A stretch of DNA of 64,000 bases from Persephonella sp. (GTDB lineage Bacteria; Aquificota; Aquificia; Aquificales; Hydrogenothermaceae). Shown piece by piece: positions 51,764 to 57,632 of this stretch. Below the pieces are notes generated by a model. It was not told where the DNA came from. It saw only the letters and a list, made by a program, of their open reading frames with translations, and did not search any database. The position numbers and the translations under genes were made by a program. The number at the start of each line of letters is the position of its first letter. Position 1 is the stretch's first letter. The stretch lies in assembly GCF_027023985.1 (NCBI RefSeq), contig NZ_JALVTW010000035.1, positions 1,374 to 65,373 on the forward strand, given 5' to 3'.

Positions 51764-52930
51764 ATGGCTTTCTCCGGAGAGTTCTACCTTACCAAAGTTC
51801 CTATACTGGATAAACACAAAAAAATTTTTGGATATTTTTTGTCTATAAAAGATTATGAAGATAAGCCTGTATCGGTAAAAGAATTAGCAGATATCCTGGT
51901 TCATACAGACCTGAAAAAACTCTCCGGAAACTATCCTGTGTTTTTGAAAGTTGAACCTGAAATACTTACCCATGACATCCTTGATTATCTTCCTGCTGAC
52001 CAGATTATATTTTTACTTGATACTTTTTCCCTGAGTGATGAGCTAATCGCAATTATCAAAGAGTTAAAAAAAGAGTTTTTTAGATTTTCCTTTGTTTATG
52101 ATTCGGATTTTGAAAAAGTTAAAGACCTCGCTGACTATATATTCGTAAATATTGATGATATAGATTCACAGATATATATGCTAAAAGACAAAGCTATAAT
52201 CACAGAAATATATACCATGGAAGAATTCAATGACCTTGTTAATGAAGGATTTAAGTATTTTAAAGGGGATTTTATATTTAAACCTGCCACTATTGTTGAA
52301 AAAAAGATAAATCCATCAAAACTTGCTGTAATGGAACTTTTTACAAAGGTAAGGGAGAATTTCAATCCTAAAGAGATTGAGGAGTTAATAAAGAGAAATC
52401 CTGATTTGAGTATAAGTCTTTTAAGATACGTTAATTCGGCAGCTTTCAGTTTTCGTAGTAAGATTACTTCTATCAGGCATGCTATATCAATACTGGGTCA
52501 GAGAAATCTGCTCCAGTGGTTATTGTTATTTTTATACAGGACAGGAGAAAGTGAGCCTTTTGCAGAAACATTACTTGAAGTTTCTGCAGAAAGGGGAAAA
52601 ACAATGGAAATTTTAGCCCAACAAATAGGTCTTCCTGATGAAGAAACAGAAAAAGCCTTTCTGGTTGGAATCCTATCCCTTGTTGATAAATTACTCGGAG
52701 TATCCCCTGAAAAATTAGGTAAAGAATTAAATCTTGATGAAGAAATTGTAAACGCCATCTCCCAAAAAGAAGGTATATTAGGAGAACTTTTATTTATAGT
52801 TGAAAAAACAGAAGAAGGGAAAATAGGAGAGGCCTCAGATATTATTGAAAAATTAGGCCTCCACCTTAATGATGTTATGTCTGCCCAGTTAAAAGCATTC
52901 GCCTGGTTTGAAGAAATAAATCTTGTTTAA
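51764..52930 (+). CDS. Degenerate-EAL plus HDOD domain protein (YuxH-like)
   Basis: N-terminal EAL-like fold without the ExL motif; HDOD LLRYVNSA...SIRHAISILG. Confidence 0.82.
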   Translation: MAFSGEFYLTKVPILDKHKKIFGYFLSIKDYEDKPVSVKELADILVHTDLKKLSGNYPVFLKVEPEILTHDILDYLPADQIIFLLDTFSLSDELIAIIKELKKEFFRFSFVYDSDFEKVKDLADYIFVNIDDIDSQIYMLKDKAIITEIYTMEEFNDLVNEGFKYFKGDFIFKPATIVEKKINPSKLAVMELFTKVRENFNPKEIEELIKRNPDLSISLLRYVNSAAFSFRSKITSIRHAISILGQRNLLQWLLLFLYRTGESEPFAETLLEVSAERGKTMEILAQQIGLPDEETEKAFLVGILSLVDKLLGVSPEKLGKELNLDEEIVNAISQKEGILGELLFIVEKTEEGKIGEASDIIEKLGLHLNDVMSAQLKAFAWFEEINLV

Positions 52931-55900
52931 ACTGCAAAATAGGTTGCCTCTGGGTGATAGACCACTATAGCATCTGTTGATTGTTCTGGCACTATCAGGT
53001 AGTTTTCTGTCAGGGATATTCCCAGCTCTTCAGGTTTCAGGAGTTCAAATATCTTTTCGTTCAAGCTAAGGTCTGGGCATGCCGGATAACCGGGAGAATA
53101 TCTTGCTCCCTGATAGTTCCTAATCTGCCAGTTTACGTCTTCAAGGCTTTCTCCTTCATTTTTTGCTATTCCAAGCTCTATTCTAATCTGTTTATGGACT
53201 ATCTCTGCAAGTGCTTCTGCAAGTTCTACACCAAGACCATGTATAAGATGGTATTCCTTGTATTTTCCTTCTTTGAAAAGCTGGTTTTCATACTCAGATA
53301 GCTTATCCCCTGCAGAAACTACTGTAAAAGCCACAACATCATGTCTGTCATTGTGGAAATAATCTGCAAGACATCTGTAAGGTGGTTTTGTTGAACGGGG
53401 GAAGTTCATAACAAGCTCTGCTGTGCCTATTATATTCTCAAGGGGTTCCCTATTTGCATCTTCGTCTCTTTTCCAGCCTTCTGTTTCAGGGAATATAATA
53501 AGGGAACATTCTCTATTTTCTTCATTTTCCTCAGGAAAATCAGACCTACAAGGCCAGTATCCATATATAATTTTTGGCTGGAACAGGTCTTCTTCTATTA
53601 GTAGTTTTTTTAGTCTTTCAAATGCTGGGAGTATTTCTTCTTTTTTCAGCCTTTCATACTCTTCTTTTGTTTTTCCAGACCTTGTGTATCCCCATGCTCT
53701 TTTGAATAGCCCGCCTTTATTTATCCATTTAAAAGCAAGTTCCTGTATATACCTGTAAAGTTTTTTATCTTCCATCTCAGGATAAATCCATATCTTTCTT
53801 CCCCAGAATGGAGGAACAGGGACAGGAACGCTTCTGTCTGGCATTTTAATCTGGCTAATAGGAGGTATTTGGACTTCTTCTTTAGGTTCTTTTAGTTTTT
53901 CTTCTATCTCTTCTTCCTCTTTGTCATATCCCAGATCTGTATCAAGGGGAGATACACCGTCCCATTTTTCAATCCTTGTCATTGCCTCTATTCCATCAAA
54001 GGCATCCCTGCAGTAAAAAATTGGACCATCATAGATAGGTCTGCAATATTCATCAACAAAGGCTTTATTTAGGGCAGCTCCACCAAGGAGAACTGGGACT
54101 TTAAGTCCTCTTTTTTGCATCTCTTCAAGGTTATTTTTCATCTCAAGGGTTGATTTTACAAGGAGGCCGCTCATTCCTATGGCATCAGCGTTATGCTCCT
54201 TATAAGCCTTTAGGAATTCTTCAAGCTCAACTTTTATCCCAATATTCACAACCTTAAATCCGTTGTTAGTCAGAATAATATCCACAAGATTTTTCCCAAC
54301 ATCATGAACATCCCCCTTGACTGTTCCAAGGATAAGGGTTGTTTGTTTGTCCTTTTTCTTTTTAGGTAGATACTGGTTTAGATAATCAACGGCAGCTTTC
54401 ATAGCCTCTGCAGACTGGAGAACAAAAGGAAGTTGCATTTTCCCTTCACCAAATAGGTCTCCTACAACTTTCATCGCATCAATCAGAATTTCATTAATGA
54501 TTTTTTCAGGGGGTATTGTATGCCTTGCCTCCTCAACAGCCTGTATTAGCTTTTCCTTTTCTCCGTCTATAAGAAGTTTCTTAATTCTTTCTTCAATAGG
54601 TAGTTTTTTAAGCTCATCTTCTTCCGCTTTTAAGTCTCTATCTTTTGCATTTGAAAAATGCTGTATAAATTTAAACAGTGGGTCTTCCCCATTTTCCCAT
54701 CTATTGAAAAGCAGGTTTTCACATACCTTTCTGTCTTCCTCTGATATTTTGTGATAAGGGATAAGATGTTTTGGGTTTACTATTGCCATTGTAAGACCGG
54801 CCTGAACACAGTGGTGTAAGAAAACAGAGTTTAGATATTTCCTTGCTGTCATATCCAGACCAAAGGAAACGTTTGATATACCAAGAACAAATCCAACTTC
54901 TGGATGTCTTTTTCTGATTTCCTTAATAGCCTCTATAGTCTGGATAGCTGCATCCCTGTATTCCTCATCTCCAGAACCTACAGTAAAGGTAAGAACATCA
55001 AAAACAAGGTCTTCCGGGTGTAATCCGTGTTTTTCTGTTGCCAGCTTATACATCCTTTCTGCAACTTCAACTTTTCTTTCTTTTGTTTTTGCCATTCCTT
55101 TTTCATCTATGGTAAGAAGAACGACAGCTGCTCCGTATCTTTTTGCCAGCTGGCAAACCTTATTGAACTTTTCTTCTCCATCTTCAAGGTTTGCAGAGTT
55201 TAGGATTGGTCTTCCACCTATCAGCTTAAGGGCGGTTTCAAGTGCAGGTGGCTGTGTGCTGTCAGGCATAAGAGGAATAGGGATTTTTTCATTAAATCTG
55301 CTGATAACCTCTTTCATATCTTTTATTTCATCTCTACCTGCAAAGTTTACAGAAACGTCTAATGCGTGTGCCCCTGCCTTTACCTGCTCCTGTGCTATAG
55401 ACAAAATAGCGTCATAGTCCTCTGCAAGAAGCAGCTCACGGAATTTTTTAGAACCTGTTGCGTTTGTCCTTTCTCCTACTAAAAATGGAGGAGGCTCCTG
55501 TTTTAATGACTGTATGCCATATAGAGAGGCTAATGCCCGTGGCTGTTTCCCTTTTGGTGGCTTTGGTTTTCTTCCTGCCACTTTGTCAGCAAGGGCTTTT
55601 ATATGGGCAGGGGTTGTTCCACAGCATCCACCGACAATAGCAACACCATCTATATCTAAAAATCTGCTTTCTTTTTCTGCGAACTCTTCAGCTCCCATTG
55701 GGTAGTATGTATGTCCACCTCTGTTTTCCGGCAAACCTGCGTTTGAGTGTATAGATATAGGCTTTGGCCAGACTTCAGAAAGCTTTTTTAGATGCTGCTC
55801 TATCTGGTCTGGTCCTGTTCCACAATTAAAACCAAGGGAGAGAATATCAAAAGGTTCCATAATGACAGCAAGGGTCTGGGCATCTGTTCCAATAAGCATT

Positions 55901-56487
55901 GTTCCAGAAAGCTCAATTGTAGCCGAAACCATAACAGGAATATCTCTTCCTTCCTCTTTTGCTGCGTCCTGAACAGCATGTAAAGCAGCCTTTATCTGTA
56001 ATGGGTCTTGAAATGTTTCCAGCAGGAATACATCAACCCCGCCGTGTATAAGGCCTTTTGCTGCTATTTTGTATCCTTCATACATCTCATCGTAATGGAT
56101 ATGTCCAAGTGAAGGCAGTTTTGTTCCAGGTCCCAGAGAACCTGCAACAAATCTTGGTTTTTCCGGAGTTGAGTATTTATCACATACCTGTCTTACAAGC
56201 TGTGCTCCGGCTTTCGCAAGCTCATAGGCTCTGTCTGGTATATCATACTCTTCTAAAACCCAAGGCAAAGCCCCAAATGTATTTGTTTTTATAAGGTCTG
56301 CCCCTGCCTGTGCATACTTTTCATGAATAGAACGGATTATATCAGGGGCTCCAACATTTAAAACCTCATTACAGCCAACCTTTCCCTGCCAGGCATCCAT
56401 AGGAACAATCATAGATTGAATCATTGTTCCCATAGCACCATCTATAACGAGAACCTTTTCTTTAATAAGCTGTCTCAAATCTGCCAT
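52927..56487 (-). CDS. metH: B12-dependent methionine synthase
   Basis: DGAMGT, GGCCGT, GERTNATGS, GDVHDVGKN cobalamin motif, RYSPGYPACP. Confidence 0.98.
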   Translation of the reverse strand: MADLRQLIKEKVLVIDGAMGTMIQSMIVPMDAWQGKVGCNEVLNVGAPDIIRSIHEKYAQAGADLIKTNTFGALPWVLEEYDIPDRAYELAKAGAQLVRQVCDKYSTPEKPRFVAGSLGPGTKLPSLGHIHYDEMYEGYKIAAKGLIHGGVDVFLLETFQDPLQIKAALHAVQDAAKEEGRDIPVMVSATIELSGTMLIGTDAQTLAVIMEPFDILSLGFNCGTGPDQIEQHLKKLSEVWPKPISIHSNAGLPENRGGHTYYPMGAEEFAEKESRFLDIDGVAIVGGCCGTTPAHIKALADKVAGRKPKPPKGKQPRALASLYGIQSLKQEPPPFLVGERTNATGSKKFRELLLAEDYDAILSIAQEQVKAGAHALDVSVNFAGRDEIKDMKEVISRFNEKIPIPLMPDSTQPPALETALKLIGGRPILNSANLEDGEEKFNKVCQLAKRYGAAVVLLTIDEKGMAKTKERKVEVAERMYKLATEKHGLHPEDLVFDVLTFTVGSGDEEYRDAAIQTIEAIKEIRKRHPEVGFVLGISNVSFGLDMTARKYLNSVFLHHCVQAGLTMAIVNPKHLIPYHKISEEDRKVCENLLFNRWENGEDPLFKFIQHFSNAKDRDLKAEEDELKKLPIEERIKKLLIDGEKEKLIQAVEEARHTIPPEKIINEILIDAMKVVGDLFGEGKMQLPFVLQSAEAMKAAVDYLNQYLPKKKKDKQTTLILGTVKGDVHDVGKNLVDIILTNNGFKVVNIGIKVELEEFLKAYKEHNADAIGMSGLLVKSTLEMKNNLEEMQKRGLKVPVLLGGAALNKAFVDEYCRPIYDGPIFYCRDAFDGIEAMTRIEKWDGVSPLDTDLGYDKEEEEIEEKLKEPKEEVQIPPISQIKMPDRSVPVPVPPFWGRKIWIYPEMEDKKLYRYIQELAFKWINKGGLFKRAWGYTRSGKTKEEYERLKKEEILPAFERLKKLLIEEDLFQPKIIYGYWPCRSDFPEENEENRECSLIIFPETEGWKRDEDANREPLENIIGTAELVMNFPRSTKPPYRCLADYFHNDRHDVVAFTVVSAGDKLSEYENQLFKEGKYKEYHLIHGLGVELAEALAEIVHKQIRIELGIAKNEGESLEDVNWQIRNYQGARYSPGYPACPDLSLNEKIFELLKPEELGISLTENYLIVPEQSTDAIVVYHPEATYFAV

Positions 56488-56569
56488 AATCTCTTACCTG
56501 TATAAATTTTTGTGGATTAATAACTTATCAAAATTTATTGCCTTTTCACAGGGTATGATTAATTTAATA

Positions 56570-56599
56570 TTGCAAAAAAATTTAAAGCTAACATATAAT
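56570..56599 (+). promoter_or_regulatory. sigma70 promoter of the speD leader
   Basis: TTGCAA-18 nt-TATAAT. Confidence 0.7.
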
Positions 56600-56643
56600 A
56601 TATTGCTGCAAATTTTATTAAACCTTAAAGGAGGTTTTTTGTC

Positions 56644-56733
56644 ATGGGCAGTTGTAGCCCGACGCGATTTTTAATTGAAAAAACAAAAATGGAGGATAGA
56701 AAATGGAAAAAACCCTCGGACTGCATATCTTAG
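56644..56733 (+). CDS. Putative 29-aa leader uORF overlapping the speD start
   Basis: SD AAGGAGG at 56628-56634; MGSCSPTRFLIEKTKMEDRKWKKPSDCIS*; different frame from speD. Confidence 0.5.
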   Translation: MGSCSPTRFLIEKTKMEDRKWKKPSDCIS

Positions 56734-57104
56734 CTGACCTTTACGGAGTGGAGTTCGACAAAATTGATCATGTCGAAGATGTAAGAGAGCTCCTTGAAGG
56801 AGCAGTCAAGTATGCAGGTCTAAGCAAATTATCTTCCCACTTTCATCAGTTCTATCCACATGGTGCAACAGGTGTAATCCTTCTTGAAGAATCCCATATC
56901 TCAATCCACACATGGCCAGAGCATGGCTATGCTGCGATAGATGTTTATACTTGCGGTGGAAAGGAAAAAACATTCAAAGCAATGGAATATATCTTAAAAG
57001 TTCTCAAGCCTAAGAGAGTTGATGAGAAGGTTGCGGAAAGGGGAGTCGTTCCTGTAAACGAAGCTGCAACCAATATAGAAAAGATAGAACTGGAAACAGT
57101 GTAA
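56703..57104 (+). CDS. speD: S-adenosylmethionine decarboxylase proenzyme (class 1B)
   Basis: GLHILADL, LEESHISIHTWPE (self-cleavage ES), DVYTCG. Confidence 0.95.
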   Translation: MEKTLGLHILADLYGVEFDKIDHVEDVRELLEGAVKYAGLSKLSSHFHQFYPHGATGVILLEESHISIHTWPEHGYAAIDVYTCGGKEKTFKAMEYILKVLKPKRVDEKVAERGVVPVNEAATNIEKIELETV

Positions 57105-57117
57105 TACTGTTTCCTTT
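57092..57117 (+). terminator. Intrinsic terminator overlapping the speD stop
   Basis: GGAAACAGT-GTAAT-ACTGTTTCC followed by TTT. Confidence 0.75.
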
Positions 57118-57194
57118 ATACGTTTTTTGTGATATGAACCATTGTTCTTCCTAAAAGGGATTACTATATTTAAATCTAAAAAGGAGGAAGAACA

Positions 57195-57632
57195 ATGGCA
57201 GAAAAATTTATTCCAGATAATGTTTTACCTGAACTGCAGGATTTAACCCCGTCTGTCCTTGCGACAAGCAAAGATAATAAGCCTTATACGACTTTTATAA
57301 CATGGCTTATTGCCAAAGATAACAGCACGGTAAGATTTGCTCTAAGTAAAGATAGTTTTTCAACAGAAAACTTAAAATCAAACCCTTATGCCAGCATAGA
57401 AGTTTTTGGAGAAGGTTTTGCCCTCAGTATTTCAGGAAATACAAAGCTTATCGTTGATGAAATAGAAGAACTTCCTTTCCCGGTTTCTGTATTTGAACTA
57501 AATGTTGAAAAGGTTGTGGATAATCTATTCCCCGGTACAAGTGTAACAGGTAAAATACCTTTTGAACATACAGGGGATACAGTTCAGGCTAAAGAATTTG
57601 ATAGAATTGTTTTAGAAGAGTTAAAAAAATAA
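57195..57632 (+). CDS. Pyridoxamine-5-phosphate oxidase-like split-barrel protein
   Basis: VLATSKDNKPY, NLKSNPYASI pattern. Confidence 0.75.
   Translation: MAEKFIPDNVLPELQDLTPSVLATSKDNKPYTTFITWLIAKDNSTVRFALSKDSFSTENLKSNPYASIEVFGEGFALSISGNTKLIVDEIEELPFPVSVFELNVEKVVDNLFPGTSVTGKIPFEHTGDTVQAKEFDRIVLEELKK

Follow-up and report, generated by a model that had tools for sequence, protein, structure and literature searches.

The speD locus of Persephonella sp. raises the question whether a short open reading frame (ORF), which precedes the gene and extends across its start codon, is a genuine leader ORF and, if so, how it could influence the synthesis of S-adenosylmethionine decarboxylase (AdoMetDC). 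This enzyme catalyzes the committed step in the formation of spermidine and of the long and branched polyamines on which thermophiles depend in the heat. In animals, plants, and fungi, AdoMetDC is controlled via peptide-encoding upstream ORFs (uORFs), and to our knowledge an equivalent uORF control has not been described for bacterial speD.

Layout of the speD leader in Persephonella

The following features were assigned to the locus. Coordinates refer to the window, i.e., the whole stretch of 64,000 nt of Persephonella DNA that was analyzed.

56570..56599, plus strand: predicted sigma-70-type promoter of the speD transcription unit, TTGCAA-18-TATAAT, 10 of 12 consensus matches
56620..56637, plus strand: weak hairpin AAACCUU-AAAG-GAGGUUU in the 37 °C MFE structure, taking in part of the uORF Shine-Dalgarno sequence
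56628..56634, plus strand: SD1, the Shine-Dalgarno (SD) sequence of the uORF, AAGGAGG, which extends as AAGGAGGU
56644..56733, plus strand: leader ORF (uORF) of 29 codons with its ATG at 56644, encoding MGSCSPTRFLIEKTKMEDRKWKKPSDCIS followed by the stop
56646..56660, plus strand: 4-bp G+C hairpin GGGC-AGUUGUA-GCCC, beginning with the G of the uORF start codon; restricted to the Hydrogenothermaceae
56691..56695, plus strand: SD2, the SD sequence of speD, GGAGG, read as ..GAG GAU.. (E D) in the uORF
56703..56733, plus strand: dual-coding overlap, consisting of speD codons 1-10 and the first base of codon 11
56703..57104, plus strand: speD, encoding the AdoMetDC proenzyme of 133 aa, with its ATG at 56703 (Pfam PF02675, AdoMet_dc, 3.7e-37)
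56731..56733, plus strand: uORF stop codon TAG, formed by speD Leu10 (TTA) and the G of Ala11
57092..57129, plus strand: terminator-like 9-bp hairpin across the speD stop codon, followed by UUUAUACGUUUUUU

The promoter, SD1, and the uORF had been pointed out in a first-pass annotation of this DNA, together with the run of the uORF through the SD sequence and the start codon of speD and its stop 31 nt inside the gene. All coordinates proved to be correct, and the two hairpins mentioned there, the weak one at SD1 and the GGGC/GCCC stem over the first uORF codons, were likewise found. The stop codon of the uORF occupies positions +29 to +31 of speD in the +1 frame of this gene, and the overlap read in that frame encodes ..W K K P S D C I S followed by the stop. 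The speD product is a class-1 AdoMetDC proenzyme, the closest solved structure being AdoMetDC of A. aeolicus (2III, 3e-57). The hairpin at the end of the gene was flagged on the minus strand, and the U tract on the plus strand is interrupted; since this terminator-like structure is located at the speD stop codon, speD looks monocistronic with a dedicated leader. The relatives described below have a TATAAT-like -10 box 24-64 nt 5′ of the uORF ATG, which places the SD and the uORF within the predicted transcript. The uORF is located between the predicted promoter and speD, i.e., in the 5′ leader of AdoMetDC.

A second in-frame ATG is present inside the Persephonella uORF at 56689-56691 (AUGGAGG), 14 nt before the speD ATG, where it overlaps the start of the speD SD. 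It would yield MEDRKWKKPSDCIS, lacks a separate SD, and is restricted to Persephonella. Divergent from speD, an ORF of 1186 aa is located at 52927-56487 on the minus strand, which, judged by its sequence and length, is a putative cobalamin-dependent methionine synthase gene (metH). If so, two genes of the methionine/SAM cycle share a single intergenic control region of 215 nt in this genome; other genera have a different neighbor of speD. Palindromes overlapping the speD promoter were observed in other Aquificales: the Aquificaceae (loci L027-L054) have CTTTTT-CAC-AAAAAG between the two promoter boxes (-35 and -10), and two genera of the Hydrogenothermaceae (loci L022, L024, and L080-L090) have TTGCAC-N7-GTGCAA upstream of the -10 box. 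These conserved palindromes are possible operator sites, and speD may therefore also be controlled at the transcriptional level.

Conservation and dual coding of the uORF in the Aquificales

The motif AAGGAGG-N4-10-ATG occurs at 13 sites in the window, compared to 0.67 sites expected from shuffled sequences. Twelve of these sites start ORFs of 68-553 aa and the 13th is the uORF. A strong SD followed by ATG is highly specific for real starts in the window.

To compare the locus between species, we collected speD and its upstream DNA from 77 Aquificales genomes, which represent 23 genera and three families: the Hydrogenothermaceae, which include Persephonella, the Aquificaceae (with Aquifex, Hydrogenivirga, Hydrogenobacter, Hydrogenobaculum, and Thermocrinis), and a third family with five loci. 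The first-pass annotation had named presence in close relatives as a check of its proposal, and SD, start codon, frame, and stop were indeed found at 77 of 77 loci. All uORFs start in the +1 frame of speD, with ATG except for two cases of GTG. Their SD is 5-8 nt long and positioned 4-10 nt before the start codon in the Hydrogenothermaceae and Aquificaceae; in the third family it is weak and only of the AGGGG/GAGG type. SD2 is invariantly GGAGG and lies about 7 nt before the speD ATG, and binding to the anti-SD is stronger for SD1 than for SD2 at 65 of the 77 loci. All 77 uORFs end at the same TAG formed by speD codons 10 and 11, and none contains an earlier in-frame stop codon. Aquificales-type speD genes (68-69% identical to the query) were also encountered in two records named 'Acidobacteria bacterium J001' and 'Gammaproteobacteria bacterium MAG 128' (loci L149 and L159), which are probably mislabelled or contaminated bins.

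The encoded peptides read MG[ST]x[SG]P[TR]...KE[DE]RKWKKPSDCIS in the Hydrogenothermaceae, MRQFKLLQKLDKEECKWSKPSDCIS and MSCF..LFQNFSREDRKWQRPSDCIS in the Aquificaceae, and MRQIKKFFKEVEKWQRPSDCTL in the third family; in Hydrogenobaculum the uORF has 46-49 aa. Common to all of them is the C-terminus KW[KQS][KR]PSDC[IT][SL]. The N-terminal peptide, whose conservation was also listed as a check in the first-pass annotation, is not conserved at the protein level, and neither is the middle of the uORF. The diversities at the three codon positions in this part are 0.27, 0.33, and 0.33, with no excess at the third position; by this measure the frame is kept there, but the sequence is not.

Maintenance of the frame is evident from the distance between the ATG codons of the uORF and speD. 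It takes 12 different values (29, 38, 47, 50, 53, 56, 59, 62, 65, 68, 110, and 119 nt), all of which are 2 mod 3, and the chance that 12 distances share one residue would be about (1/3)^11 = 6e-6 if the length were independent of the frame. The untranslated spacer between the -10 box and the uORF ATG, which served as control, showed 27 values distributed 8/10/9 over the residues mod 3. Moreover, although the leader is A+T-rich, no stop codon interrupts the +1 frame over at least 17 codons before speD at any of the loci, whereas frame 0 is usually open for only 1-8 codons.

Within the overlap, both reading frames leave their mark. The synonymous diversity of speD is 0.14 in codons 2-10 compared to 0.52 in all other codons (p = 8e-6 in a Mann-Whitney test, loci treated as independent) and rises to 0.62 at codon 11, the first one past the uORF stop. 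Codon 10 is TTA at 39, CTA at 27, and ATA at 11 of the 77 Aquificales loci, i.e., the third base is invariant and the first one free. The changes that occur freely in the overlap are silent in both frames (CTG/TTG corresponding to GAC/GAT, and TTA/CTA to TCT/TCC), and other changes are conservative in the uORF (K/R). Tolerance of doubly silent changes is what dual protein coding predicts and not what would be expected from a constraint on the RNA sequence. A non-regulatory reason for keeping the TAG could simply be that it curbs wasteful translation out of frame. Taken together, the statistics on conservation, frame, and stop exclude that the ORF arose by chance and agree with the first-pass annotation in that the leader ORF overlapping the ribosome-binding site and start of speD is genuine and under selection. 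These comparisons show that selection maintains not only the start signals and the frame, but also the place where the uORF stops and the identity of its last approximately nine residues. Judged by this conservation, the uORF is a real, evolutionarily maintained leader ORF throughout the heat-loving Aquificales.

Three other explanations of this pattern were considered. The uORF of the Hydrogenothermaceae reads UGG AAA AAA CCC with a GGAGG 10 nt upstream, which resembles dnaX and would suit a programmed -1 frameshift on G AAA AAA leading to an N-terminally extended SpeD. The dnaX-type slippery heptamer is not conserved, however: the A-run is confined to the Hydrogenothermaceae, and the Aquificaceae and the third family read UGG CAA AGA/AAG CCC, which has no slippery run, with the whole architecture being kept. 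In addition, speD has an SD and AUG of its own. A frameshift was rejected for these reasons and appears extremely unlikely.

A second possibility is that the leader, together with the first 30 nt of speD, harbors an RNA element which acts by its structure or binds a protein or sRNA, the ORF being incidental. Constraint at the nucleotide level is indeed seen at the GGGC/GCCC hairpin, which was present in 39 of 40 distinct Hydrogenothermaceae sequences with varying loop length and loop codons; one genome of this family has GGCC...GGCC instead. The stem codons are always GGC and AGC/GGC/GCC plus CCN, GGC being a rare Gly codon in these genomes, and in a covariation count the stem was almost invariant and indel variants were misaligned. 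Furthermore, speD codons 4-8 contain ACUGC and CCUCGG, with which the leader segments GCAGU and CCGA(C/G)G could pair, and the MFE structures at 70 °C repeatedly show a GAGG/CCUC pairing of 4 bp. On the other hand, the whole leader folds no better than shuffled sequences (z = 0.04) and the leaders are nearly unstructured at 70 °C (MFE about -5 kcal/mol per 160 nt), so that the two small hairpins are minor features. The one at 56620-56637 is marginal at this temperature, and the upstream CCU/A-run complementary to SD1 occurs in many, but not all, Hydrogenothermaceae and not in the Aquificaceae. With cmscan against Rfam 15 (E up to 10, positions 56400-57250), all hits were at chance level with scores well short of the gathering thresholds, and the leader had none on its plus strand. 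The folding results led us to drop a riboswitch or thermometer. Pairing of the 5′ part of the uORF with speD codons 4-8 and the 4-bp SD2/CCUC pairing were rejected as cause of the constraint, since the complementary leader segments are missing in the Aquificaceae, which nevertheless keep the same frozen speD codons. With indels occurring only in multiples of three, a stop codon under selection, and variation exactly at the doubly silent sites, we consider an incidental ORF on an RNA element highly improbable.

Selection on the amino acid identity of the C-terminal 9-10 residues would also fit a free micropeptide of 22-49 aa which acts in trans, e.g., on SpeD or another polyamine enzyme, the overlap only coupling the synthesis of both. 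The long form of Hydrogenobaculum, the only deposited one, is annotated as hypothetical protein, which is in line with such a function; eight of the ten uORF peptides looked up were absent from a collection of 15 billion proteins. No family match was obtained for the peptides in Pfam or NCBIfam, and no similarity to SpeFL was found; a Pfam-A hmmscan of six representative peptides with E values up to 10 did not reveal a match to AdoMetDC_leader (PF08132). Apart from this lack of a family, the N-terminal two thirds of the peptide are conserved neither in sequence nor in length, the C-terminus differs between orders (see below), and the conserved part is exactly the one that is forced to co-evolve with the N-terminus of SpeD. 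A micropeptide acting in trans is thus very unlikely in our opinion.

speD leaders in the sister order and in other bacteria

All 26 speD-bearing genomes of the sister order (Desulfurobacteriales-type genera) were analyzed as a natural control. The overlapping uORF is kept in two lineages, starting with ATG in one family and with TTG in one genus. In several other genera it is replaced by a mini-uORF of four codons, and in still others no uORF is present. The mini-uORF (loci L067, L180, L184-L188, and L063) consists of the SD GGAGG, about 10 nt, and the codons TTG AGT GTT ATY TAA, which encode MSVI-stop; the version in L063 encodes MIV-stop. It is located at about -50 to -23 relative to speD in the frame of the long uORF, ends just before SD2, and looks like a truncated derivative of the long uORF. 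One further genus (g25) has no start codon, and here an SD-like GGAG lies in the loop of a GGGGA/UCCCC hairpin.

The two orders taken together, codon 10 of speD is NTA at 83 of 83 loci with an overlapping uORF, but only at 8 of the 20 loci without it, where GTT occurs ten times, GTA eight times, and GTG and GTC once each (Fisher's exact p = 8e-11, loci treated as independent). In the group without overlapping uORF, GTA and GTT replace each other within at least three genera, and codons 2-9 are less constrained, with 0.26 vs. 0.42 in the rest of the gene. As far as this comparison goes, part of the synonymous constraint at the 5′ end of speD is generic, and most of it, as well as the entire conservation of the stop codon, is uORF-dependent. 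The C-terminus of the uORF peptide differs between the orders (PSDCIS, HWESTL, LSASTL), which makes a universal, sequence-specific arrest peptide unlikely.

The mini-uORF bears on a further explanation, a constitutive positive coupling, in which SD1 loads ribosomes that terminate and re-initiate at the speD AUG with the help of SD2. Termination would take place at +31 or, in the mini-uORF variants, 23 nt upstream of the speD ATG, and the uORF would serve as a translational enhancer or ribosome-delivery device and not as a sensor. Termination and re-initiation fit to a mini-uORF that shares the frame and the SD of the long uORF and ends just before SD2, and the variable N-terminal and middle part of the peptide suggests that translating counts more than the sequence. 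In thermophiles, translational coupling through overlapping genes is common. Several points speak against coupling: speD has a good SD of its own at ideal spacing within a leader that is unstructured at 70 °C and should need no help, a backward re-initiation over 31 nt is long, and several Desulfurobacteriales genera apparently express speD without any uORF. As coupling also leaves the frozen last residues of the uORF unexplained, we regard it as unlikely.

Outside the Aquificota, different leader ORFs were found. Similarity searches with SpeD of Aquificota returned only Aquificota; with T. maritima SpeD (PDB sequence) as query, 80 metagenomic speD loci were fetched, of which 74 had enough upstream DNA for analysis. 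Three loci of candidate division WOR-3/TA06 (L241, L250, and L271) possess an SD-led uORF of 25 codons over the speD start, whose peptide reads MC[LF]FLCRFELNPLTSD[YF]GGMKECKP-stop, also given as MCFFLCRFELNPLTSDYGGMKECKP-stop. It starts 65 nt upstream of speD (2 mod 3) in the +1 frame and stops at +13, the element extending from about -76 to +13. Two copies differ at nine codons synonymously and at two non-synonymously, a clear indication that the whole peptide is under purifying selection. The WOR-3 uORF resembles the one of the Aquificales in the +1 frame, the overlap with the start, and ..K-P near the speD start, but the peptides are unrelated. At seven loci of Clostridium sensu stricto (L243, L245, L246, L248, L251, L264, and L273; C. 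tertium, saudiense, celatum, and intestinale group), an SD-led uORF of 14-16 codons was detected at about -90 to -30, which ends approximately 13 nt before the speD SD. Its peptide, M..AFLL.KYLS.GW.-stop, is likewise unrelated to that of the Aquificales. These unrelated leader ORFs in WOR-3 and Clostridium suggest, on the basis of small samples, that speD leader ORFs have arisen repeatedly in bacteria, where SD-led uORFs at speD may turn out to be a recurring arrangement.

Thermotoga-like lineages and several others have a gene for a Cupin_2-domain protein directly upstream of speD and no uORF. This gene (L219, L221, L226, L234, and L252; positions 1-380, where its C-terminal half was seen) ends 20-30 nt before speD and possibly encodes a PuuR-like regulator; it represents a different regulatory neighborhood for speD. 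The speD paralogue of the Persephonella genome (G000 contig C30, L092 1460-1500; 32% identical), possibly a neofunctionalised decarboxylase, has no comparable uORF. It starts at a universally conserved TTG (L190-L204), and in four genera a two-codon start-stop, ATG-GAT-TGA, is located between its SD and the TTG, which it overlaps.

Possible mode of action and relation to known leader peptides

What was found for the uORF in the Aquificales corresponds to the general features of bacterial cis-regulatory leader ORFs, i.e., a conserved SD and start codon and a frame and stop under selection. The uORF probably tunes speD translation, and we consider it rather likely that it does so as a translated, cis-acting element that meters or represses speD translation. 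Occlusion or exposure of the speD start by ribosomes on the uORF would be the most natural reading, as it best fits the anatomy of the locus. The mRNA is predicted to begin approximately 35 nt upstream of the strong SD AAGGAGGU and the AUG. Ribosomes initiating there would cross the SD and AUG of speD in the +1 frame and terminate at the UAG 31 nt inside speD. Since they and the ribosomes initiating at speD would need the same approximately 45 nt of mRNA, uORF traffic would gate speD initiation. With a ribosome at the uORF stop, the P site would lie only 25 nt downstream of the speD AUG, which is less than the spacing of stacked ribosomes, and speD initiation would have to wait until the terminating ribosome has left. 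Dwell time at the end of the uORF would in this way set the output of SpeD and might depend on the nascent C-terminus KW[KQ][KR]PSDC[IT][SL] and on the UAG-C stop context. In E. coli, a C directly after UAG makes a poor context for termination; in the uORF, this C is fixed by the Ala11 codon (GCN) of speD. The conserved C-terminus suggests that the nascent peptide matters. Only analogy suggests that polyamines, dcSAM, SAM, or similar metabolites could affect the dwell time; an input of polyamines or dcSAM is plausible, although we would place it on the doubtful side.

The analogy comes from the eukaryotic AdoMetDC uORFs, where a ribosome stalled at the uORF stop lowers initiation at the main ORF at high polyamine levels (PMC2811004). 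Like the MAGDIS hexapeptide uORF and the plant 'small uORF' (PF08132), the speD uORF is a short ORF in the leader of an AdoMetDC mRNA, and the C-terminal residues of the peptide are under selection in both cases. In contrast to them, it is bacterial and SD-driven, does not involve scanning, shows no sequence similarity, and extends 31 nt into the main ORF in a different frame, whereas the eukaryotic uORFs end upstream. SpeFL, an ornithine-sensing arrest peptide upstream of speF in Gammaproteobacteria which acts at the termination codon of the leader (bioRxiv 10.1101/604074), is likewise encoded by a bacterial leader ORF before a polyamine biosynthesis gene. It ends upstream of speF (ornithine decarboxylase), operates via Rho-dependent transcription termination, and is conserved over its whole length. 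The speD overlap, unlike SpeFL, would act directly on the ribosome-binding site, and as the uORF ends inside the gene, no untranslated stretch is left before the gene on which Rho could act. Leaders of the Erm/Cat type and coupled overlapping genes also comprise an SD-led short ORF whose occupancy decides on the access to the downstream ribosome-binding site. Erm/Cat-type leaders, however, remodel a hairpin that hides the downstream SD, whereas the speD leader, being almost unstructured at growth temperature, offers no RNA fold for the uORF to open. Again unlike these leaders, the speD uORF runs over the SD, the AUG, and ten codons with dual-coding constraint, and this long dual-coding overlap is unusual. 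A bacterial speD uORF was not found described in the literature, including a survey of Aquificales ncRNAs (PMC4227106) and a study on the neofunctionalisation of SpeD (PMC10407285), and the speD leader ORF is apparently undescribed and outside every described family.

Carried further, the analogy leads to the tentative idea that bacteria have independently invented the eukaryotic mode of AdoMetDC control. The uORF ribosome would stall at or near the UAG at high levels of polyamines (or dcSAM) and sterically block speD initiation, and the unrelated speD leader peptides of Aquificota, WOR-3, and Clostridium would together form a widespread, overlooked layer of polyamine homeostasis in bacteria. 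We consider this possible, but it goes well beyond the tuning of speD translation that we favor.

The speD leader ORF provides a clean, small, and highly conserved candidate for uORF control of AdoMetDC in bacteria, and changes that are silent in speD but recode the uORF or remove its stop offer a built-in experimental handle. It is also a rare clear case of a dual-coding overlap of ten codons that has been kept throughout a bacterial order. Such ORFs escape gene callers, as seen from the eight of ten peptides absent from the protein collection, and in view of the unrelated uORFs at speD in WOR-3 and Clostridium, a systematic survey appears worthwhile.
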